NCBI GenBank assembly: GCA_963704165.1
Contig: CAVPHD010000005.1
Location: 160,001 to 224,000, forward strand
DNA: 64,000 nucleotides
Reading direction: 5' to 3'
Source of the DNA: an uncultured delta proteobacterium
Lineage (GTDB): Bacteria; Myxococcota_A; UBA9160; SZUA-336
Shown here piece after piece: positions 36,429 through 61,142 of the stretch. The position numbers were made by a program, and so were the translations under genes. The notes beneath the pieces are model-generated. The model was not told the DNA's origin. It saw nothing but the letters and a program-made list of their open reading frames with translations, and searched no databases. Within the stretch, counting starts at the first letter, position 1; each line of letters opens with the position of its first letter.

Positions 36429-36860
36429 GAGCGAGGCGCCGGGGCAGGCGGGTGCGACCGAGCTCGAGCAGCCGTTCGAACTGACGCTTCTCGACCGGCA
36501 TCACCGAGAGCCGGGACTGCGTGACGAGCTTGAGCTTCGCGAGCGAGCGATCCGCGCGGATCGGGCGAGCGACACCGGCCGCTCGAACGCTCGCAGAGCT
36601 TCGATCTCGACGGCGACCCAGCGAGGGTCTTCGCTGGTCGGGTCCGGGCGCGCCGGTCCGCTGACGCGCGCGATCCCCACGACCTCGGCCTCGTGCGAGT
36701 GATAGAAGAGCACGAGGTCGGACTTCGCCATCGCCGCCAGGTTCTTGCGCGCCTCGTGGTTGCGCACTCCGTCCCAGAGCGTTCGCCCGTCCGCCACGAG
36801 CTGCGCGAAGGGATAGACCTCGGGTTCCGACTTGAGCAGCCAGAAAGCGCGCGCGGCCAT
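36388..36860 (-). CDS. EVE domain protein, frameshift near 36562
   Basis: FWLLKSEP, WDGVRNHEAR, LFYHS, RWVAV, RPVSL; the shifted frame gives LVTQSRLSVMPV. Confidence 0.88.
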
Positions 36861-38017
36861 CAGACGATCTTTCGGACGGACTCCGGCATCGTCTTGGCCA
36901 CGCGAATGATCGGAATTCCGGTCTGTCGCGCGTCGTACATCTCGCGCATCGCGCGCGGGAGATCCTCGAAGGCGTAGATCTCCTTGTGAACGGTGGGCTT
37001 GAAGACGACGCCGTAGAGCTCCGTCGCCGCCGCGCAGCCCTCGATCGTCTCGTAGTGGGTGTGATCGATCGTCACCTGCTTGACCGACTGAAGCGTCGAG
37101 TTGTAGGTGACCTGCTGCGAGAGCTGCCAACCCGAAGAGACGTTCACGCCGCAGCGCGCCGCGACCGCGAGCCCGGCGTCGAAGACCGGCCCGCGCAGCA
37201 TGTCGCAGACGATGTGCATGTTGACCGAGTTCGTGAGCTTCCGGACCTCGCCCTGGAACGCCTTCACGTCGTCACGCGAGGCAAAGCGATTGAAGACCTT
37301 CTGATCGATCCCCCGGATGCCCTGACGTTCAAGCGCTTCGCGGCGGTCGGGAGAGCCCGAACAGAACCAGGCGTGGTGCCCTTCGGACTTCGCGAGCATG
37401 AGGAAGCACTCGCCGACGCCGCCGCCGAACGACATCACGTTCAGGCGTCGCAATTTGGTGTCGGAAACCTTCAGACGGAAGATGCCGATCGCCCGCCGCC
37501 ACATGTGATAGGCCGTCGGTGCGCGCAGCGGCAGCGCCGCCATTTCCCAGAGGCTCAGTCCGCAGTCGAGCGGCGCGGGCACGAGCTGCCACTCGCCGAC
37601 CACCGCTTCGTCGGCGTACCACCCGATCGAGTCGGGCTGATCGTAAGCCCAGATGCGCAGCGCGTAGCCGTAGGTGTCGGGCTGGCCGTTGCAGTGGGTC
37701 AGCGCGATGTCACCGACCTTGAAGCGCTTGACGTCGTCGCCGACCGCGAGCACCTCGCCGACGGCCGAGTTCCCGGGATAGATCTTTCCGCCGCGCGTGG
37801 CGGCGATGCTGTCGGTATCGGCGAGGATGGCGTGATCGATGTTGTGCTCGCCCGAGACGGCGAGGATGCGCAGGTGCACGTCGGCCGGCCCCATCTTTCG
37901 CAGCTCGAGCTGATCGAGCTTGATCGCGTTGGCGAACTCGAACTTCGCGACGTCGCCCTTGACGCGTTCCTTCTCCTTGACGATGTCGGCGGCGCTGATC
38001 GAGTAGGCTTTGACCAT
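36860..38017 (-). CDS. Medium-chain dehydrogenase/reductase, divergent enoyl-CoA carboxylase/reductase (Ccr)-like
   Basis: GroES-like GEVLAVGDDVKRFKVGD; no Zn-ADH GHE or Cys4 motif; Ccr-like segments THC, RIWAYD, QLVPAP..LSLWEMAA..TAY, THY. Confidence 0.7.
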   Translation of the reverse strand: MVKAYSISAADIVKEKERVKGDVAKFEFANAIKLDQLELRKMGPADVHLRILAVSGEHNIDHAILADTDSIAATRGGKIYPGNSAVGEVLAVGDDVKRFKVGDIALTHCNGQPDTYGYALRIWAYDQPDSIGWYADEAVVGEWQLVPAPLDCGLSLWEMAALPLRAPTAYHMWRRAIGIFRLKVSDTKLRRLNVMSFGGGVGECFLMLAKSEGHHAWFCSGSPDRREALERQGIRGIDQKVFNRFASRDDVKAFQGEVRKLTNSVNMHIVCDMLRGPVFDAGLAVAARCGVNVSSGWQLSQQVTYNSTLQSVKQVTIDHTHYETIEGCAAATELYGVVFKPTVHKEIYAFEDLPRAMREMYDARQTGIPIIRVAKTMPESVRKIV

Positions 38018-38086
38018 GCCGACGATGATGAACGGGGCGCACCGCGGAGATCAAGCCGACGACGATCCGGAAACGGTAGGAAGCGC

Positions 38087-38800
38087 GTGCCCACTTCGAC
38101 CCGCCCCCGGATTCCGCTGCCCGACGAAGTCGTGTCGATGATCCGACGGAAGATCCTCGACGGATCGTTCGCCCCGGGCGAGCGCCTGCCGGCGGAGCGC
38201 GATCTGGCGGCGAGCCTGCGTGTGAATCGAAGCTCGGTTCGCGAGGCACTGAGGAAGCTCGAGGAGCTGCGCCTCGTCGAGATCCAGCGGGGTTCGGGCG
38301 CGCGCGTGCGGGACGCGGAGCACGCGAGCTTCGAGATCGTCTCGCCGCTGCTGCTCGAAGGCGGCGAACGCGGCCTCGCGCGGATTCGCGAGCTGCACGA
38401 GCTTCGCGAGGTTCTGCTTCCCGGCTTGCTGCAGCTCGCTCTGCGACGCGCGAGCGATGCCGAGCTCGAATCCTGCGTCGCGAGTCTACGCGACCTGACT
38501 CGGCCGGAACGGTCCGACGGCGAATTCCTCGAGTCGCTGCTCGAGCTACAGGTCTTGTTCGCGCGACTGACTCACAATCGTGTACTTCGGATCCTCGCGA
38601 ATTCCGTGACGCGGTTTCTCGGAGAGCACGGCCCGCTTCCCGATTCGGGTGAGATCGTGGCCGAGCGGCGAAAGCTGCGGTCGCTCCTCGAGCGTCTCGG
38701 AGTCGCGATCCTGGCGCGCGATTCGGAGACGGCCGACCGCGTCGGGCGGGAGCTGCTGCGGCGATCGACGGAGGCATTCGTGGGCGGAGCCCGGCCGTGA
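38087..38800 (+). CDS. GntR/FadR family transcriptional regulator
   Basis: FAPGERLPAERDLAASLRVNRSSVREALRKL..IQRGSG; FCD-like C-terminus; divergent from the MDR gene. Confidence 0.88.
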   Translation: MPTSTRPRIPLPDEVVSMIRRKILDGSFAPGERLPAERDLAASLRVNRSSVREALRKLEELRLVEIQRGSGARVRDAEHASFEIVSPLLLEGGERGLARIRELHELREVLLPGLLQLALRRASDAELESCVASLRDLTRPERSDGEFLESLLELQVLFARLTHNRVLRILANSVTRFLGEHGPLPDSGEIVAERRKLRSLLERLGVAILARDSETADRVGRELLRRSTEAFVGGARP

Positions 38801-49966: not shown

Positions 49967-52900
49967 TTGGGTAGTGAGATTCGGCGAATAGCGATCCTGA
50001 ATCGCGGCGAGGCCGCGACTCGTGCGCTGCGTGCGATTCGCGAGCTCCGCGTCGAGGAAGGCAGCGACCTCGTCGGTATCGCGCTCTACACCGAGCCCGA
50101 CGCTTCCGCTCCGTTCGTTCGCGAGGCAGACGAATCGCTTTCGCTCGGCCCCGCGTTGCGCGCCGCCGGAAGCGGAGCCATGCGGCCGGCCTATCTCGAT
50201 CACGATCGAGTCCTCGCGGCGCTGCGCGCGACTCGCGCCGATGCGGTCTGGCCGGGCTGGGGATTCTTGGCCGAGGATCCGAGCTTCGTCGAGAAGCTCG
50301 AGGCCGCGGGGGTTCATTTTCTCGGACCGTCCTCGCAGACGATGCGCCGGCTCGGCGACAAGATCACGAGCAAGCGCATCGCCGAGGCCGCGCCGTGTTC
50401 CCGTGTCGCCGTGGAGCGGCGGAGCCGTGCAGCGACTCGAGCTGCCGGATCTCGCCAAGCGCATCGGTTTCCCCGTCATGCTGAAGGCGACCGCGGGCGG
50501 CGGCGGTCGCGGCATCCGGATGCTTCGCGAGGGCGACGACCTGTCCACCGCATTCGACAGCGCGCAATCCGAGGCTGCGAATGCCTTCGGCGACGGCACG
50601 CTCTTCGTCGAGAAGGCGATTTCGGGTGCGCGCCACGTCGAGGTGCAGATGGCGGCCGACCGCCACGGAACGGTGCTCGCGCTCGGACTGCGCGACTGCT
50701 CGGTGCAGCGCAAGCACCAGAAGGTGGTCGAAGAGGGACCGCCTCCGGGGCTCTCGCAGACGCTCATGCACCAGCTTCGCGAAGCGTCGATCCGCCTGCT
50801 TCGCGAGGCCGAATACCGAGGAGTGGCGACCTGCGAGTATCTCGTGATCGCGGCGGGCGGTGACGAGTCGTTCTACTTTCTCGAGGTCAATCCGCGTCTG
50901 CAGGTCGAGCACGGAGTCACCGAGCTTCTCACCGACTTCGATCTCGTGAAGGCGCAGATCCGCATCGCGCGCGGCGAACGCCTGCCCGACGACGCCCCCG
51001 GAGGAGAGCGGCTGCGCGATCGAGGTCCGGCTCTGCGCCGAGGATCCCGCGGCGTCGTTCGCACCGAGTCCCGGGCGGATCGCGCTTCTCGATCTGCCCG
51101 CTGGACCGGGCGTTCGCGTCGATGCGGGCATCGCTGCGGGCGGAACGATCCCGTCCGAGTTCGATTCGATGATCGCGAAGATCCTCGCGCGAGGCGCGAC
51201 GCGCGAAGAGGCGCGCGCGCGCCTGGTTCGCGCGGTCGCCGACGCACGCGTCGTCGTCGAGGGCGGGATGACGAACAAGGGATTCCTGCTCGACGTGCTC
51301 GAGCATCCCGAAGTTCCGAAGCGGCGGAGTCACCACCAACTGGCTCGACGGAACGAGCCTCGCTGCCGCACCCGAGCCGACGATCGAGGCGCTGATCGTG
51401 GCCGCGATCGAGACGTATCAGCTCGAGCGCGTGAAGGTGCGGGCGAATTTCTTCGCCGCTGCCGCGCCGCGGTCGGCCGCGCGAGATCCCGCCGTCGTCG
51501 GGAGCGGAGATCGATCTCGTCTACGCCGGCCAGACGTATCGACTTCGCGTGTTCGCGATCGGCGGCTGGGCGTACCGGGTTCATTCCGGAGACAGCGTCG
51601 CACAGGTCTCGCTGCTCGAGCGCGGCCCGTACTCGAGCCTGTTGGTGATCGGCGACCGCCGATCGCAAGTGCTCGTCTCGGGCTCCGAGGTCGAGATGCG
51701 GGTCGAGATCAACGGCCGGCTGCACCGCGTTCTTTGCGACGTCGGCGGAAAGGTTCGCGCGCCGTCGCCGGCGCTCCTGATCGAAGTCGCGGTGAAGCCG
51801 GGAGATCCCGTCGAGGTCGGCACGCGACTCGGGATCTTCGAGGCGATGAAGACGGAGACGGCGTTCTTCGCGCCGGTTGCCGGTGTCGTGCGCGAAGTTG
51901 CTCGTGCGCCCGGGCGAGCGCGTCTCCGCGGGCGACGTGATCCTGGTGATCGAGCCCGTCTCCGACGCCGTGACCGCGCCCCGAGCGTGCAGGTGCGCTC
52001 GAGCTTCCGGTCGAGGACGAGCCGCTCGAGCTGTTCTACACCGAGGACGGCGGCGCCGACTTCGAGCGCGCGAGCGCGGAGCCGGCGTCGGTGCGCGCGG
52101 CGGCGGTCGCGGCGCTGCGCGGTGAGATCCGCCGCGATCCTGATGGGCTACGACGTCAATCCGGAGCGCGCGGACCGGCTCGTCGAGATCCTCGAGGCAC
52201 CGGTCGCCAAGCTCTCCGACGCGCTGCGCGCGGATCTCGCGCAGCTCGCCGGCGCGGTCGAGATCTTCTCGGACGTCGAGACGCTCTTCTCGCGCTCGCC
52301 GACGCGGCTCGCCGGAGACGAGCTCGGACCGTCCAACGACGCGCGCATGGCGATGTACCTGCGGCGCATCGCCGTCCTCGGTGCGGGAATCGACCCGGCG
52401 TTCCTGGAACTGTTGAAGAAGGCGCTCTCCCACTACGGGATCAACTCGCTCGCCCACTCCGACACGCTCGAGCGCGCGGTGCTCCGTCTCTACGCGACGC
52501 GCACCACGCTGGCGCTGCGCAGCCGCCTGATCGGCGCGCTCCTGCACCTGTTGATCGGGCTCGGCGAACGGGGCGAGATGTTCGCCCGACGGCCCGAGCT
52601 CGCGCTCGCGCTCGACGCGCTCTCGCTCCTGCGCGGGACGGTGGCGCCGAGCGTCGCGGACCTGGGCGCACAGGCGAGATTCCTGCTCTACGACCGACCG
52701 CGACACGCCGAGACCGAGGCGCGGCCGAAGCCGCGCTGCAGATCTCGGGTTCACCAGCGTCGATGCGCCCGATCCGTCGGTCCTGAAACGGATCGCGGAG
52801 TCGGTCGACATGGACGTCGCGGATGCGCGTCGCCTCGAACTCTGGCGGCTCGAGCTCTTCGAGCTCACCCGTCTCGACGCTTCCGGCTGGAGCGGGATCG

Positions 52901-55069
52901 ATGCCTTCTACGGCGTCTCGCGCGACGACTATCGCGACGAGCGCATCATCTGTTTCGCCGAGGTCGATGACGTCGGCCCCGCAGCGCCGCACGCACCGGA
53001 CCTCGCGCTCTTCGAGGAGCGCTTCCACGAGGCGATCGAGGCGATGCGGTCGATCCAGGGACAACGCGATCCGGAGCATCGGCTCCAGTGGAACCGGCTC
53101 TATCTGTTCGTGCGTCAACCGATCGCACTCACGAATCAGCTCCTCACCGAAGCGCTGCGCAGACTCGCTCCCGAGACCGGTCACCTCGGGCTCGAGAAGG
53201 TCATCGTCCGAATCGCGAATCACATCGGAGATGCGCCGAGCTCGGCACCCCGCCTGATCGAGCTACTCGCTGGGAATCCGACCGGGAGTCGCATCGAGTG
53301 GACCATCCGCGATTCCACACGATCGTCCGCTCGAACCCGCGACGCCGTACGCGCAGCGAGTCGCATCGGCGCGCGCTCGCGGGCTGACCTATCCGTACGA
53401 GGTCGTGCGTTTGTTCACCGCTCCACCGGAAGGCGCCAGGCGAGGGGGTGGGTTCGCCGACGGGTGCGGGAAGCTTCCAGGAGCACGACCTCGTCGGTGG
53501 CCGTGCAGAGTCCGTGACGCGACCGCCCGGTTTGAACCGCGCGGGTGTCGTGTTCGGCGTCGTGTCCACACCCACGCGCAAGCACCCGGAGGGCATGCGT
53601 CGTGTGCTCATCGCGGGTGACGCGACGCGCGACATGGGTGCACTGACGGCGGACGAGTGCGATCGGATCGTCGCGGCGCTGGATCTGGCGGAGCGGGAAC
53701 GCCTGCCGGTGGAGTGGGTGGCGGTCTCGGCCGGCGCGCGAATCGCGATGGACAGCGGCACGGAGAACCTCGATGCCACGGCGCGAGTCGTGCGGCGCCT
53801 GGTCACGTTCACCGACGCGGGCGGCGAGGTGAATCTGGTGCTGCCGGGAATCAACGTCGGTGCGCAGAGCTACTTCGACGCGCTCGCGACCATGGAGATG
53901 CGCTCGCGCGGAATCCTGATCATGCTCGCGAACGCATCGATGGTGCTCACCGGCCGTGCGGCGCTCGAGTTCTCGGGCGGCGTCGCGGCGGAGGACGAGA
54001 TCGGCGATCGGCGGGTACGAGCGAATCATGGGGCCGAACGGCGAGGCGTCACACCAGGCGCGCGACCTCGCCGACGCCTATTCGATCCTGCTCGAGCACT
54101 ACGCGTGCAGCTACGTCGTACCGGGCGAGACGGCCCCGCGGCGGCTCGACACCGTCCGATCCGATCGATCGCGACATCTCGCTCTCGCCCTACGAGGGCG
54201 ACGAGGGCTTCACGACCATCGGGGAGGTCTTCTCGGCCGAGGCGAATCCCGGGCGCAAGCGCCCGTTCGCGATGCGACCGCTGATGCGCGCGGTGATCGA
54301 CGACGACGCCGGCTGGCTGGAGCGCGGCCGTGACTGGTCCGCTGCCGAGACGGCGATCATCTGGGACGCACACCTCGGCGGCTGGCCGGTGACCCTGATC
54401 GGGATCGAGAGCCGCCAGATACCGCGCATCGGCTACGTGCCGAACGATGGACCGGATGTCTGGACGGCGGCGACGCTCTTTCCGCAGTCCTCGAAGAAGG
54501 TCGCGCGCGCGATCAACTCGGCCAGCGGAAATCGCCCGGTCGTGATCCTCGCGAACCTCTCCGGATTCGACGGATCGCCGGAATCGATGCGCCGCGGCGT
54601 ACTCGAGTACGGCGCCGAGATCGCGCGCGCCATCGTGCGGTTCCGCGGCCGGATCATCTTTACCGTCGTGACCCGCTATCACGGCGGCGCGTACGTCGTG
54701 TTCTCCCGCGAGCTCAACGACTCGATTCGTGCGATTGCGCTCGAGGGTAGCTACGCATCGGTGATCGGCGGGCCCGCCGCCGCGGCGGTCGTCTTCGCGC
54801 GCGACGTGCGCAGGCGAACTCAAGTAGATCCGCGCGTCTCGAGCGCGCGGAGCGCCGTCGACTCGGCGACGGATCCGGCGATTCGTCTCGCGCGCCGCGC
54901 GCGACACGACCAGATCGTCGAGGACGTGATTCTCGAAAAGCAGGCCGAGGTGGCGGCCGAGTTCGACGCGATCCACACGGTCGAGCGCGCGAAGAACGTC
55001 GGCTCGATCGAGGAGATCCTCGGACCGCGCCAGCTGCGACGATCGCTGATCCGCTACCTGTCCGACTAG
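49967..55069 (+). CDS. Single-chain multidomain acyl-CoA carboxylase (BC-BCCP-central-CT), about 10 or more frameshifts
   Basis: ILNRGE, WPGWGFLAED, KATAGGGGRG, RDCSVQRKHQK, FLEVNPRLQVEH (BC); EAMKTE (biotin Lys); SAGARIAMDSG, ANLSGFDGSPESM, RYHGGAYVV (CT), distributed over successive frames. Confidence 0.85.
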
Positions 55070-56684: not shown

Positions 56685-56978
56685 TCAGCGTCCGCGGTGC
56701 TTGTCGGAGAAGGGAAACGCTCGCTGCCGATCGGCCTCGTCACCTGCATTCAGCCAATCGGGTGTTCGCGCCGCGAACATCCTTCGTGTCGGCACGTAGA
56801 CGTCGCCGACCGGCTCCGCCGCGTACTCGGGCTTGCACCCGCACGAGCAGCGGTCGCTCCCGGCGCAGGCCCCACAGCAGAACCAGGCCTCGTCCTTCCG
56901 GGTCGAGGCGTAGCCGAGGGCGCAGCCGCAGTGCGTACACGTTCCGCTCACGGGTGCTTGATGTCCGATGTCGCTCAT
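56685..56978 (-). CDS. Small Cys-rich, bacterial metallothionein-like protein with C-terminal tail
   Basis: CTHCGC..KDEAWFCCGAC..CSCGC (9 Cys in 35 aa); AGGAG RBS upstream. Confidence 0.6.
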   Translation of the reverse strand: MSDIGHQAPVSGTCTHCGCALGYASTRKDEAWFCCGACAGSDRCSCGCKPEYAAEPVGDVYVPTRRMFAARTPDWLNAGDEADRQRAFPFSDKHRGR

Positions 56979-57000
56979 CGCGCTCCTACTCTCTCCTATC

Positions 57001-57020
57001 GATCGGGAAAATTCCCGATC
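57001..57020. promoter_or_regulatory. Perfect 9-2-9 inverted repeat, candidate operator
   Basis: gatcgggaa-aa-ttcccgatc between the divergent Cys-rich and pduO genes. Confidence 0.6.
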
Positions 57021-57118
57021 TCCACAAGTGGGGCGGGGCCGGGCCGACGTGTTCCCGGGTCCCCGCCGGAGGACCTTCGACCCGCCCGTCGAGGACGAGT
57101 GAAGTAGAATCGAGCCCG

Positions 57119-57682
57119 ATGAAGATCTACACGAAGGGCGGGGATACCGGGCAGACCTCCCTGTTTGGCGGGGAACGGGTCAGCAAGAGCGCTCCACGCG
57201 TTCGTGCGTACGGCGAGGTCGACGAGCTGAACTCGGTGCTCGGCGTCGCCGCGACCGAGATCGCACACGACGACCTGATGGCGATGCTGCGCGTGATCCA
57301 GTCGTCGCTTTTCGATCTCGGCGGCGAGCTGGCCACGCGCGCCGGCGATGCGAAGGGGGAGCGAGGCCGCGGGGCGGCACGCGTCAGCGATCGCGACGTA
57401 GCCGAACTCGAGGGCTGGATCGACGCGCTCGAAGCCGAGCTCGAGCCGCTGCGGAACTTCATCCTGCCCGGAGGCATCAAGGGCGCGGCACTGCTTCATC
57501 TGGCGCGGACGGTCTGTCGTAGGGCGGAGCGCGAGCTGATCGCGCTTCGCGAAGTCGAAGACATCGATGCGGTACTCGTTCGATACCTGAATCGCCTCTC
57601 GGATCTGATCTTCGTGATGGCGCGCGCGATGAACCGGCGAGCCGACGTCGCGGAGCCGCAGTGGATCGGACGCGAGCGTTGA
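57119..57682 (+). CDS. pduO: ATP:cob(I)alamin adenosyltransferase (PduO type)
   Basis: MKIYTKGGDTGQTSLFGGERVSK, AYGEVDELNS, LFDLG, FILPGG, RTVCRRAER, YLNRLSD. Confidence 0.95.
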   Translation: MKIYTKGGDTGQTSLFGGERVSKSAPRVRAYGEVDELNSVLGVAATEIAHDDLMAMLRVIQSSLFDLGGELATRAGDAKGERGRGAARVSDRDVAELEGWIDALEAELEPLRNFILPGGIKGAALLHLARTVCRRAERELIALREVEDIDAVLVRYLNRLSDLIFVMARAMNRRADVAEPQWIGRER

Positions 57683-58281
57683 CCGAGGTGGAGTACGCGA
57701 AGCTGCTCGTCTCGATCGGTGCGGTCGAGCTCCGGACCGATCCGGCGACGTGGTTCACCTGGGCTTCCGGTGAGCGGGCACCCATCTACTGCGACAATCG
57801 GATCGTGATGTCCCATCCGTCGGTGCGCAAGCAGATCGCCGATGGTCTCAGCTCCGCGATCCGCCGCACCCATCCCGATGCCGAGGTGATCGCGGGTACG
57901 GCCACGGCCGGCATTCCGCACGCGGCCTGGGTCGCCGAGCGACTCGACCTGCCGATGGTCTACGTCCGCGGTAGCGCGAAGGAGCACGGCAAGGGGAAGC
58001 GCGTCGAAGGGAAGGCGCTTCGCGGCGAGCGCGTGGTGCTGATCGAGGATCTGGTTTCGTTCGGCGGCAGCGCGCTGGCGGCGGTCGAGGCGCTGGAGGA
58101 CGAAGGCGGGAAAGTGGTCGGGGTGCAGGCGATCTTCAGCTACGGATTTCCGAAGGCGGCGGAGCGCTTCGCGTCGGCCGGAAAGCCCGTGCATTCGCTG
58201 ACCGGATACGACGCGCTGCTCCAGACGATGACACTCGACGAGGTCACGAAGCGAGCGCTGCTCGCTTGGCGAGCGCGCTGA
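57679..58281 (+). CDS. pyrE: Orotate phosphoribosyltransferase
   Basis: FTWASG..APIYCDNR, GTATAGIP, YVR..KEHG, LIEDLVSFGGS. Confidence 0.93.
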   Translation: MTEVEYAKLLVSIGAVELRTDPATWFTWASGERAPIYCDNRIVMSHPSVRKQIADGLSSAIRRTHPDAEVIAGTATAGIPHAAWVAERLDLPMVYVRGSAKEHGKGKRVEGKALRGERVVLIEDLVSFGGSALAAVEALEDEGGKVVGVQAIFSYGFPKAAERFASAGKPVHSLTGYDALLQTMTLDEVTKRALLAWRAR

Positions 58282-59215
58282 AGCCGTCGAGCGCCGAGCC
58301 CGGACTCGCGACGACGAGCGCCTCGGCGGCCGCTCTTCCGCCGACGCGCTCGAGCCCGAAGCTCCCGTAGCGGCGCACGAAGAGCTCGAGCGCCCAGGCG
58401 AGACGCGCGCGGGCGCGGCGTGTCTCGAGCTCGCCGTGCAGGAGATGCGCGCGGTGGCTCGCAATCGCGGCGGCGACCTCGCCGATTCCGACTCCCGTCT
58501 GACTGCTCGCGCCGATCACGGGCGGCCGCCAGGCGCCAGGCGCGAGCGTCGAGAGACCGAGCCAGCTCTCGAGGTCCGCGCGCGTTCGCGTGGCCTGCGT
58601 GCCGAGATCCCACTTGTGGACCACGAACACGTCGGGAATCTCGAGGATGCCCGCCTTCATGAACTGAAGGGTGTCGCCAGAGCCGGGCTGCAAGACGAGG
58701 ACGACCGTCTCCGCGACGGTCTCGACGTCGATCTCGCTCTGCCCGACGCCGACCGTTTCGACGAGCACCGTCCCGAAGGCCGCGCGAAGCACGACGACGG
58801 CGGCGCGTGTCGCCGGCGCGAGACCGCCGAGCTGGTCACGCGCGGCCATCGAACGGACGAAGACGCGCTCGTCCGGACGAAATCGCAGACGTGCGCGATC
58901 GCCGAGCAGGGCTCCGCCGGATCGACGGCTCGTCGGGTCGACCGCGACCATGCCCACGCCCTCTCCGCGGGCCAACCACTCGCCGATCAGCGCGCCGGCG
59001 AGCGTCGACTTGCCCGCGCCCGGCGGGCCGGTCAGCCCGACGACGGCGTGCGCGCGTGGTGTCTCGAGATCGAGTCGGCCGATGAGCGTGCGAATGGTTT
59101 CGAGTGACTCGGGGCGCGTATCCTCGACGCGCTCGAGCGCGGAGGCAATCGCTGCAGCGTCCCCCGAGCGCACGTCGCGCACGAGCGCGTCGAGGTTCGC
59201 GTCAGCCGACGCCAT
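58244..59215 (-). CDS. meaB: MeaB/ArgK GTPase chaperone of B12 mutases
   Basis: GLTGPPGAGKST, VDPTS..SGGALLGDR, RSMA, ETVGVGQSE, GDTLQFMKAGILE. Confidence 0.93.
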   Translation of the reverse strand: MASADANLDALVRDVRSGDAAAIASALERVEDTRPESLETIRTLIGRLDLETPRAHAVVGLTGPPGAGKSTLAGALIGEWLARGEGVGMVAVDPTSRRSGGALLGDRARLRFRPDERVFVRSMAARDQLGGLAPATRAAVVVLRAAFGTVLVETVGVGQSEIDVETVAETVVLVLQPGSGDTLQFMKAGILEIPDVFVVHKWDLGTQATRTRADLESWLGLSTLAPGAWRPPVIGASSQTGVGIGEVAAAIASHRAHLLHGELETRRARARLAWALELFVRRYGSFGLERVGGRAAAEALVVASPGSALDGFSALAKRAALAS

Positions 59216-61142
59216 GTGCCGAGGCGGCGATTTCGACCATCTCGCTCAGGATGCGCAGCACGTCGTAGTCGCGAGGCGTGTAGACGGCGGCGACTCCTTC
59301 GGAGCACAGCTTCGCGGCGTCCGCCTCGGGGATGATTCCACCGACGATCACCGGCACCGATGCGCGGCGCGCGATCTCGGGCGCGAGCGCGAGGTGCGAG
59401 CCCGAGAGGATCGAGAGCCCGATCAGGTGCACCCCTTCCTGCAGCGCGGCCGTCACGATCTCGTCGGTGGTCATGCGGATTCCCTGGTACACCACCTCGA
59501 GTCCGGCGTCGCGCGCGAAGATCGCGATCTGCTCTGCGCCGCTCGAGTGGCCGTCGAGCCCGGGCTTTCCGACGAGCAGCTTGAGCCGCCGGCCGAGCTT
59601 CGCGCTGACCTCGTCCACACGCTTGCGCAGCGTGCCGAGCCGCGCGGCGTCGGAGCGCGGCGCGACGGCTGCATCGACTCCCGTGGGCGCGCGAAACTCT
59701 CCGAACACGGTGCGGAGCGCATCGGCCCACTCGCCCGTCGTCACGCCGGCGTGCGCGCAGCGCACCGAAGGCTCCATCACATTCGAGCCCGAAGCGAGCG
59801 CGTCGCGCAATCCGCGCAGCGCCGATTCGACCTCGGACGAGCTCCGATTCGCGCGGTGTGCGCGCAGGCGCTCGACCTGTTCGCGGCCCTGCGATTCGTC
59901 GACCGACAGGATGGAGTTGGCGCCCTGAAGCAGCGGCGAGGGCTCGGCCTCGCTGAATCGATTCACGCCGACCACGATGCGCTCCCCTGCCTCGATCGAA
60001 GCGACGCGCCTCGCGTTCGCCTCGACGAGCGCTCGCTTCATGTAGCCCGATTCGACCGCGGCGATCGCGCCGCCCTGCTCGTCGATTCGCGCGATCTCGG
60101 CCCACGCGGCCTTTTCGATCTCGGCGGTCTTCTTCTCGATCACGACCGAGCCCTCGAAGATGTCGGGGTACTCGAGGATGTCCGTCTCGTAGGCGAGGAT
60201 CTGCTGGATTCGCAGCGACCACTGCTGATCCCACGGCCTCGGTAGCCCGAGGGCTTCGTTCCAGGCGGGAAGCTGGAGCGCGCGGCAGCGTGCGTCGCGC
60301 GAGAGCGTCACGCCGAGTGCCTCGAGTGCGATTCGCGGCACGTTGTTCTCGGGTTGCGCCTCGGTGAGGCCGAGCGAGTTCACCTGCACGCCGTAGCGGA
60401 AGCGGCGCTGGGTCTCGTCCGTCACGCCGTAGCGCTCGAGCCCGATCCGCTCCCACATGCGGGTGAACGCGCGCAGCTTGCAGATCTCCTCGATGAAACG
60501 GATTCCGGCGTTGCAGAAGAACGAGATCCGTCCGAAGACCGGTCCGAGCTTCTCGCGCGGAACGCGCACCGAGTCGAGCACGGCCATCGCGTTGGCGAGC
60601 GAGAACGCGATCTCCTGCACCGGCGTCGCGCCGACCTCCTGCAAGTGATACGAGCAGATGTTGATCGGGTTCCACTTCGGCACCCGCTCGACGGTCCACT
60701 CGATCATCTGGCGCGTCAGGTCGAGGGACGGCCGGGGCGGGAACACGTAGGTCCCGCGCGACAGGTACTCCTTCACGATGTCGTTCTGCGTCGTGCCCTG
60801 GAGCACTTCGCGCGCGACGCCGCGCCGCTCCGCCACCGCGACGTACAGCGCGAGCAACCACGCGGCCGTCGCGTTGATCGTCATCGACGTGTTCATGCGG
60901 TCGAGCGGGATGCCTTCGAAGAGCTGCTCCATGTCGGCGATCGAGCCGACCGGAACTCCGACCTTGCCGACTTCGCCGGCCGCGAGCGGATGGTCCGCGT
61001 CGTAGCCGGTCTGCGTCGGCAGGTCGAACGCGATGGAGAGGCCCGTCTGCCCCTTGGCGAGGTTCTGCCGGTAGAGTTCGTTCGACGCGCGGGCGTTCGA
61101 GTGACCCGAGTAGGTGCGGAAGATCCAGGGTCGATCAGTCAC
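59202..61142 (-). CDS. ecm: Ethylmalonyl-CoA mutase (MeaA/Ecm)
   Basis: PWIFRTYSGHS..SNELYRQNLAKGQTGLSIAFDLPTQTGYD; B12 motif LDGHSSGAEQIA is Ecm-type, not the DGHDRG of Mcm. Confidence 0.88.
   Translation of the reverse strand: MTDRPWIFRTYSGHSNARASNELYRQNLAKGQTGLSIAFDLPTQTGYDADHPLAAGEVGKVGVPVGSIADMEQLFEGIPLDRMNTSMTINATAAWLLALYVAVAERRGVAREVLQGTTQNDIVKEYLSRGTYVFPPRPSLDLTRQMIEWTVERVPKWNPINICSYHLQEVGATPVQEIAFSLANAMAVLDSVRVPREKLGPVFGRISFFCNAGIRFIEEICKLRAFTRMWERIGLERYGVTDETQRRFRYGVQVNSLGLTEAQPENNVPRIALEALGVTLSRDARCRALQLPAWNEALGLPRPWDQQWSLRIQQILAYETDILEYPDIFEGSVVIEKKTAEIEKAAWAEIARIDEQGGAIAAVESGYMKRALVEANARRVASIEAGERIVVGVNRFSEAEPSPLLQGANSILSVDESQGREQVERLRAHRANRSSSEVESALRGLRDALASGSNVMEPSVRCAHAGVTTGEWADALRTVFGEFRAPTGVDAAVAPRSDAARLGTLRKRVDEVSAKLGRRLKLLVGKPGLDGHSSGAEQIAIFARDAGLEVVYQGIRMTTDEIVTAALQEGVHLIGLSILSGSHLALAPEIARRASVPVIVGGIIPEADAAKLCSEGVAAVYTPRDYDVLRILSEMVEIAASAHGVG

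Follow-up and report, generated by a model that had tools for sequence, protein, structure and literature searches.

The window analysed here is a 64,000-nucleotide stretch from the genome of an uncultured delta proteobacterium (contig CAVPHD010000005.1, genome G000 in our collection), and the gene in question encodes a 385-residue medium-chain dehydrogenase/reductase (MDR). The family to which this protein belongs very likely performs the step of crotonyl-CoA carboxylase/reductase (Ccr) within the ethylmalonyl-CoA pathway of acetate assimilation in bacteria without a canonical Ccr. By analogy with characterized enoyl-CoA carboxylases/reductases (ECRs), this window enzyme itself probably carboxylates crotonyl-CoA reductively with NADPH. 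It lies outside the Ccr family as defined by hidden Markov model (HMM) and clade, but probably works like Ccr. ECRs count among the fastest enzymes that fix CO2, and synthetic fixation cycles are built around them.

Relation of the window MDR to the enoyl-CoA carboxylases/reductases

The Pfam domains ADH_N and ADH_zinc_N place the protein among the MDRs. Aligned to cinnamyl alcohol dehydrogenase (2CF5), its best PDB match by single sequence, it has GNS in place of the GHE motif of zinc-dependent alcohol dehydrogenases (Zn-ADHs), and the Cys-rich structural-zinc lobe is missing. Position 83 is Asn in all members of a set of 200 homologues (120 proteins from the protein search and 80 genomic loci, two sources that may overlap), and by this ligand test the protein is not a Zn-ADH. 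With the family profile as query, the ten top PDB matches are all ECRs (E 1e-34 to 5e-22; next 1e-18). An AlphaFold2 model with a mean pLDDT of 94.5 retrieves only ECRs among the Foldseek matches listed, down to rank 19, and ECRs also fill the top ten in VIA-align. The best global superposition is that on the Kitasatospora setae ECR 6OWE (Z 40.0, root-mean-square deviation (rmsd) 2.4 Å, 364 residues); the margin over the best non-ECR, at Z 36.5, is modest. Profile, model, Foldseek and VIA-align agree on an ECR-type zinc-free MDR fold. Matches in the ESM Atlas are limited to unnamed or generic MDR clusters.

TIGR01751 (Ccr) is the top NCBIfam match of the window MDR (E 1.2e-19), with a score of 70.3 bits against a curated cut-off of 378.55, which leaves the protein far outside the equivalog. 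A 30-row maximum-likelihood tree unites the family and a distant clade in one group (support 100/100) and eight canonical ECRs in another (99/98). The two groups are sisters (100/98) with respect to an outgroup of eight MDR paralogues from the window genome, with a stem length of 1.3, so that the family stands next to the canonical ECR clade and not inside it. This tree omits 41 rows of the full 71-row set, the longest outgroup branch (L097) among them, its outgroup is narrow, and propionyl-CoA synthase (Pcs) and the archaeal reductases are not included; the larger quick tree of 71 rows left the relation of the family to the ECRs open. It is likely, not proven, that the family is a sister lineage of the canonical ECRs.

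Residues N59, Y125, D126 and H321 of the window protein sit on N81, F170, E171 and H365 of the K. setae enzyme in both phmmer and hhalign alignments (the latter with 349 columns aligned to 16 canonical ECRs at a probability of 99.9), and all four are invariant in 200/200 homologues. The K. setae numbering was read from the 6NA3 chain and agrees with T82 following N81 in PMC6628652. From the aligned positions, the four side chains would form a putative CO2 pocket. According to that paper, N81L and F170A lower carboxylation in K. setae Ccr to 19% and 17%, respectively, while F170Y keeps 100%, E171A 97% and H365N 93%. Since N81L and F170A lose carboxylation and F170Y does not, both selectivity-critical positions are kept in the family; Asn, Phe/Tyr and His at positions 81, 170 and 365 are represented by N59, Y125 and H321, and Tyr at 170 occurs naturally. 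The Glu171 position is Asp126 in 200/200 sequences, a conservative change; E171A lowers kcat 17-fold, and an E-to-D exchange is absent from the variant tables of PMC6628652 that were consulted.

Around the CoA moiety, DeMirci et al. (PMC9413435) name K296, R303, Y328, K332 and R352/Y353 as CoA-binding or coupling residues. K296 corresponds to K252 (K or R in 178/200), R303 to R259 (K or R in 187/200) and K332 to R288, which is invariant in 25 aligned sequences. After the second Rossmann strand the family has S/A-G-S-P-x-R-R with no acidic residue, which, together with pntAB adjoining the gene in some relatives, suggests NADPH as the cofactor.

Much of this had been anticipated in the initial annotation. 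Its description of a 385-residue MDR without zinc ligands, divergently oriented to a FadR-type regulator, is borne out by the open reading frame (ORF), Pfam and the 2CF5 alignment, and the computed alignments reproduce every motif pairing that it had made by eye. The overall similarity, which it had called low, is indeed so, at ~21% identity to known ECRs, yet it is above chance by both TIGR01751 and hhalign, and the Rossmann loop that it had called atypical (FGGGV) does differ from that of ECRs.

The primary-metabolism ECRs (K. setae 6OWE/6NA3, 4GI2, 3HZZ and 3KRT; TIGR01751) have in common with the family the zinc-ligand-free MDR fold (Z 37–40, rmsd 2.4–3.1 Å), an Asn, an aromatic residue, an acidic residue and a His at the four pocket positions, the genomic partners and the gene slot. 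The window MDR is shorter, with 385 residues compared to 443–467 in their PDB chains, and the family differs from them in having Asp for Glu171, E-H-N for N-Y-N, I/V/L for Thr82, Asn for Ser119 and the FGGGV loop. The secondary-metabolism ECRs AntE (4Y0K) and CinF (4A0S) share the fold and the predicted pocket, and AntE too has Tyr at the Phe170 position. They adjoin polyketide synthase (PKS) genes, as does the sister clade of the family; unlike them, the window family is nearly a core gene, occurs in single copy and has neighbours from central metabolism. The Pcs reductase domain (6EQO) and the Nitrosopumilus acrylyl-CoA reductase are enoyl-CoA reductases described as having latent carboxylase activity in PMC10176493 and PMC7918591; 6EQO is neither among the best 60 profile matches listed nor among the structural matches listed for the window MDR. 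Zn-ADHs and quinone oxidoreductases (2CF5, 2EIH, the PIG3 family) share the superfamily fold (Z up to 36.5) and rank below the ECRs by profile, structure and tree; the GHE motif and the structural-zinc cysteines are absent from the window MDR.

Distribution of the family and its sister clade

Of 6,966 candidates in a protein search, 2,158 matched at E <= 0.001. The best 119 listed are 70–90% identical; 12 of them bear the automatic JGI name crotonyl-CoA (carboxylase/)reductase, and the rest are generic or unnamed. Genome contigs yielded 94 relatives, of which 80 loci were kept, mostly from metagenome-assembled genomes (MAGs) that are Myxococcota/Deltaproteobacteria or Actinomycetota by title. 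A profile search of 50%-identity representatives returned 378 matches, including the distant clade at ~22–32% identity, and no viral copies matching the family patterns were found.

Our sample of the phylum comprises 201 genomes, 38 of them in the class of the window genome. The family is present in 34/38 class genomes and in 0/163 of the others, where the single weak match (G090) is a sister-clade gene. The gene for ethylmalonyl-CoA mutase, ecm, is found in 34 of the 38 as well, and the two occur together in 32; the family tracks with ecm, being carried by 32/34 of the ecm-bearers of the class. The two ecm-bearers without the family, G051 and G072, both have canonical ccr, and the two family carriers without an ecm match (G027 and G087, both fragmented assemblies) have full-length Mch. 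Family, ecm and ccr are all lacking in G008, which has isocitrate lyase, and in G062. Outside the class, 29/34 ecm-bearers of the sample have canonical ccr. Family gene and ecm share a contig, less than 23 kb apart, in 12 of the 32 genomes that have both. Full-length Mch is found in at least 27/34 class carriers, a lower bound because the PF19315 threshold is too strict (it missed the Mch of G072), and half-length matches in actinobacteria are uninformative. Isocitrate lyase was found in 0/34 class carriers and in 0/71 of all family carriers searched.

The two class genomes with ecm and without the family also show where ccr sits. In the arrangement typical of relatives, the family gene is divergent from two succinyl-CoA-synthetase-like genes, which are joined by a small ferredoxin-like gene and in many cases by one for an Mcl-like lyase; beyond these lie nadA, ecm and meaB, and mch and pntAB are often near. 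In G072, a canonical ccr occupies the position of the family gene, with one small ORF between ccr and the synthetase-like pair. The ccr of G051, with a score of 704 bits against the K. setae ECR, agrees with the family gene in its distance from nadA-ecm-meaB and in its orientation to them, although no synthetase-like pair is found there.

A second phylum repeats the pattern. Few Acidimicrobiia-class genomes have the family, with 0/150 sampled besides the centre genome, and among these 150 family-free genomes 79 have ecm, 76 of them together with canonical ccr. By comparison, 26/29 actinobacterial family carriers have ecm (four as partial matches of 64–66% identity), and a full canonical ccr is present in just a single genome among these 26; one carrier without an ecm match has a partial ccr. 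An epimerase (TIGR03081 over cut-off) directly adjoins the family gene in 23/30 actinobacterial loci and a thiolase is near it in 23/30, and the identical order thiolase-ccr-epimerase is seen in 5/6 canonical ccr loci examined. In Acidimicrobiia, mostly just one gene is exchanged, the one flanked by thiolase and epimerase, and no carboxylase gene arrives beside it. In a search of 50 of the 80 locus genomes, at least two of which repeat the class sample, 44 had ecm and 2 had an over-cut-off ECR. One genome, G366 (L036, L126), has the family gene, flanked by thiolase and epimerase, as well as a canonical ccr by a second thiolase at a contig end, a double state that is either transitional or due to a mixed bin.

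The initial annotation had proposed an unrecognised ECR branch that supplies the Ecm of the window. This proposal gains support from the sister position in the tree, the tracking with ecm, the near-exclusion with ccr and the slot swaps in two phyla. The absence of a canonical ccr from the window was correctly noted, and a TIGR01751 search of the whole genome places the sole over-cut-off match on contig C10. A canonical ccr elsewhere in the genome and homologues that fail to track with ecm had been named as observations that would speak against the proposal; a canonical-type ECR does exist elsewhere, and the homologues do track with ecm. The ~21 kb said to separate the MDR gene and ecm is accurate (21.2 kb), while the word downstream is not: both genes are on the minus strand and ecm is transcriptionally upstream of the MDR gene.

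Members of the sister clade keep the Asn, the Tyr/Phe-Asp pair and mostly the His at the pocket positions. In three loci from a plasmid collection, two members directly follow a PKS or PKS–nonribosomal peptide synthetase (NRPS) gene and one precedes genes for a CoA-transferase and a CitE-like lyase; these are the MDRs of Embleya and Azospirillum (PKS or PKS-NRPS) and of Burkholderia (CoA-transferase/lyase), at L135:9001-10167, L136:7983-9077 and L134:8977-10161. One PKS-side locus also has genes for a KS III, an acyl carrier protein (ACP) and an adenylation enzyme, and one sister-clade protein, P0205, is fused to a DltC-like carrier domain. The PKS-side MDRs are possible extender-unit enzymes or trans-acting enoyl reductases, and the wider clade probably takes varied substrates. 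G065 (G065:C111, L152:1665-5707) has ecm but gave no canonical ccr match; here an intact sister-clade gene lies directly before genes resembling mcd and mch, and its product may be a further stand-in for Ccr. The sister-clade genes of G065 and G090 are 30% identical to the window MDR; that of G090 (G090:C104, L122:1531-2700) precedes a CitE-like lyase gene. We are somewhat inclined to view the whole assemblage as reductive carboxylases of a second, ancient branch that is sister to every known ECR and has an N/Y/D/H pocket of its own. One arm would fix CO2 in nearly the whole class and be swapped with ccr in Acidimicrobiia; the other would be found in PKS/ACP clusters, perhaps as a source of extender units, and in G065 before the mcd/mch-like genes of a genome without canonical ccr.

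Proposed reductive carboxylation and its alternatives

By analogy with K. setae Ccr, NADPH would deliver a hydride to C3 of crotonyl-CoA and the resulting enolate would then attack CO2, held by Asn59 on one side and by a water bound to His321 and Asp126 on the other, with Tyr125 excluding bulk water. The (2S)-ethylmalonyl-CoA formed would pass through an epimerase to Ecm (59202-61142), the Mcd-like dehydrogenase, Mch and the Mcl-like lyase, yielding glyoxylate and propionyl-CoA in place of the missing glyoxylate shunt.

Several observations weigh against this assignment. The second-shell residues T82 and S119 are replaced by I/V/L and Asn, respectively, and K. setae Ccr loses more than 50-fold in rate with T82D and with S119A (PMC6628652). 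The Y328 position is mostly Ala and never Tyr, R352/Y353 are not kept in the window protein (counting along the phmmer alignment), and the Rossmann loop of the family differs from that of ECRs. According to PMC7918591 and PMC10176493, natural carboxylation is almost absent in Pcs and in the Nitrosopumilus acrylyl-CoA reductase, so an ECR-like site need not carboxylate. An over-cut-off ECR is present in the window genome (contig C10), in 2 more of the 34 class carriers and in 1/29 actinobacterial carriers, with a partial one in another. In seven genomes, ecm occurs with neither a canonical ccr nor a full match to the family profile. No epimerase over the TIGR03081 cut-off was found in the window genome, which is 84% complete. 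Finally, the genomes are kin and the counts are not independent events, for which reason no P-value is given; the weight of the case lies in the recurrence of the pattern in two phyla with in-place swaps. The seven ecm-bearing genomes with neither enzyme (G020, G111, G032, G176, G225, G264 and G295) may have missing contigs or another route to ethylmalonyl-CoA.

The main rival, which we consider unlikely though far from negligible, is that the enzyme is a reductase only: crotonyl-CoA would be reduced to butyryl-CoA, which a biotin-dependent carboxylase of the propionyl-CoA type would convert to ethylmalonyl-CoA at the cost of ATP. Such a route accounts equally well for co-occurrence and gene slot, and the genomic data, which fit both, cannot separate it from reductive carboxylation. 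Carboxylation of butyryl-CoA by propionyl-CoA carboxylase is described as a minor route in Streptomyces (10.1101/2024.10.29.620908), the window genome has several carboxyltransferase paralogues along with biotin-carboxylase genes near 50–55 kb of the window, and both the altered second shell and the reductases that barely carboxylate (PMC7918591) fit this explanation. On the other hand, the Asn and the aromatic residue that decide selectivity are invariant in 200/200 sequences despite ~21% identity to ECRs, and the Acidimicrobiia swap brings mostly a single gene with no carboxylase gene alongside.

It is quite improbable that the main substrate is a different one, for example acrylyl-CoA, turned into methylmalonyl- or propionyl-CoA by a reductive carboxylase or a reductase that shares the epimerase and mutase steps. 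The epimerase acts for methylmalonyl-CoA too, part of the CoA pocket differs, and the sister clade lies beside PKS, KS III, ACP and CoA-transferase/lyase genes. This explanation, however, gives no origin for the ethylmalonyl-CoA needed by Ecm, Mch and Mcd in 30 class and 25 actinobacterial genomes that have no canonical ccr, nor does it account for the mutual exclusion with ccr. We give very little credence to an ordinary MDR of the quinone-reductase or ADH type under FadR control, with the C10 ECR supplying the pathway and the link to ecm reflecting shared ancestry. That over-cut-off ECR, the cinnamyl alcohol dehydrogenase as top single-sequence PDB match and the mostly generic database names are in its favour, but ECRs are nearest by profile, structure and tree, and the ecm link is seen again, together with slot replacement, in another phylum.

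The C10 protein itself is AntE-like and groups with canonical ECRs, not with the window family; the canonical-type ECRs of G000, G087 and G177 form one AntE-like clade. Its gene lies ~2.7 kb from a type I PKS, among genes for glycosyltransferases, a phosphopantetheinyl transferase (PPTase) and AurF, and it is absent from five same-family genomes sampled and missing from 31/33 other class carriers. We rejected it as the ccr of the pathway on PKS context and distribution.

No description of the family was found in the literature searched, including passages of PMC8262859, its preprint and PMC10576062; most subscription papers were outside the search. The Binatota preprint mentions ccr in several orders. 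If the family carboxylates, a lineage of ~21% identity would test whether four residues suffice for carboxylation, show the origin of carboxylation inside the MDR superfamily and provide a smaller engineering scaffold. Metabolic reconstructions would need correcting, because the ccr HMM misses the family and many MAGs from soil, freshwater and marine sites would be scored as having neither an intact ethylmalonyl-CoA pathway nor a glyoxylate shunt. If the enzyme only reduces, the pathway would be a natural ATP-dependent variant. MDRs have reportedly been screened for the CO2 motif by Bernhardsgrutter et al. in 2019.

Pathway genes and neighbours in the window genome

The features of the window are collected in Table 1. 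The mutase appears to be ethylmalonyl-CoA mutase by orthology: its identity to the mutase encoded in a canonical mcd-ccr-meaB-ecm cluster of G017 is 62.5%, whereas that cluster mutase and the other mutase of the window genome are 38.5% identical. The true start of the adenosyltransferase is probably ~120 codons further in.

Table 1 Features in the window, with position, strand and basis of assignment
Feature	Position	Strand	Basis
Zn-free MDR, divergent ECR-like enzyme, 385 aa, intact ORF	36860..38017	(-)	Domain, profile, structure and tree searches
Asn59, aligned with K. setae ECR Asn81 (CO2 anchor)	37841..37843	(-)	Alignments; invariant 200/200
Tyr125-Asp126, aligned with Phe170 (water shield) and Glu171	37640..37645	(-)	Alignments; invariant 200/200
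His321, aligned with His365 (ordered water, nicotinamide)	37055..37057	(-)	4GI2 and profile alignments; invariant 200/200
B12 acyl-CoA mutase, Ecm type	59202..61142	(-)	Pfam; orthology
MeaB GTPase chaperone	58244..59215	(-)	PF03308 E 4.5e-68; directly after ecm
Cob(I)alamin adenosyltransferase (B12 cofactor supply)	56762..57682	(+)	PF01923 residues 122-289; TIGR00636 over cut-off
GntR/FCD (FadR-type) regulator	38087..38800	(+)	Pfam/NCBIfam; divergent from MDR across 69-bp gap
EVE-domain gene	36501-36860	(-)	Start overlaps MDR stop; 112 of 145 profile positions matched

The pathway genes are dispersed in the window genome. Besides Ecm, it encodes Mch (PF19315), an Mcl-like lyase and a candidate Mcd of 42% identity, which gives it Ecm, Mch, Mcl and, as this candidate only, Mcd; pntAB and the synthetase-like pair are present as well. 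The glyoxylate shunt is lacking: isocitrate lyase and malate synthase were not found in the 84%-complete assembly, and a partial isocitrate lyase match was rejected as a protein of the PEP-mutase family. A tandem glyoxalase-domain gene (G000:C1:92108-92980, L140:6109-6981) is a candidate ethylmalonyl-CoA epimerase, and a similar gene lies near ecm in several class relatives. On contig C12 (~52400-54700, L143:4381-6730), the divergent succinyl-CoA-synthetase-like alpha/beta pair is accompanied by a small Cys-containing ferredoxin-like gene. The pair, scored on the copies of relatives, is below the SucCD and malate-CoA ligase cut-offs and is tied to mcl and the MDR gene in relatives; it may be a malate- or other dicarboxylate-CoA ligase.

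The region around the AntE-like ECR (G000:C10:24000-43000, L119) encodes a type I PKS (KS-AT-KR-DH-ACP-TE), a PPTase, the ECR, an AurF N-oxygenase, an M55 peptidase and glycosyltransferases. It is an uncharacterised biosynthetic cluster, and G177 has a similar ECR with glycosyltransferases.

Neither immediate neighbour of the MDR gene is widely kept. The FadR-type regulator is near the gene in only 8/80 related loci, and the EVE-domain neighbour likewise in 8/80. We therefore rejected FadR as a conserved partner of the MDR, the link being limited to close relatives, and no convincing operator repeat was found in five intergenic regions. The EVE-domain gene seems frameshifted near its 3' end, probably by an assembly error, and other genes of the window that seem frameshifted are an amidase gene near 29.6–31 kb and the carboxylase genes at 50–55 kb. 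From 42621 to ~49900 on the plus strand, the window contains multiheme cytochrome c3-like, molybdopterin-oxidoreductase/FeS-type and NrfD-like membrane genes, which by eye resemble an alternative complex III (Act) operon.

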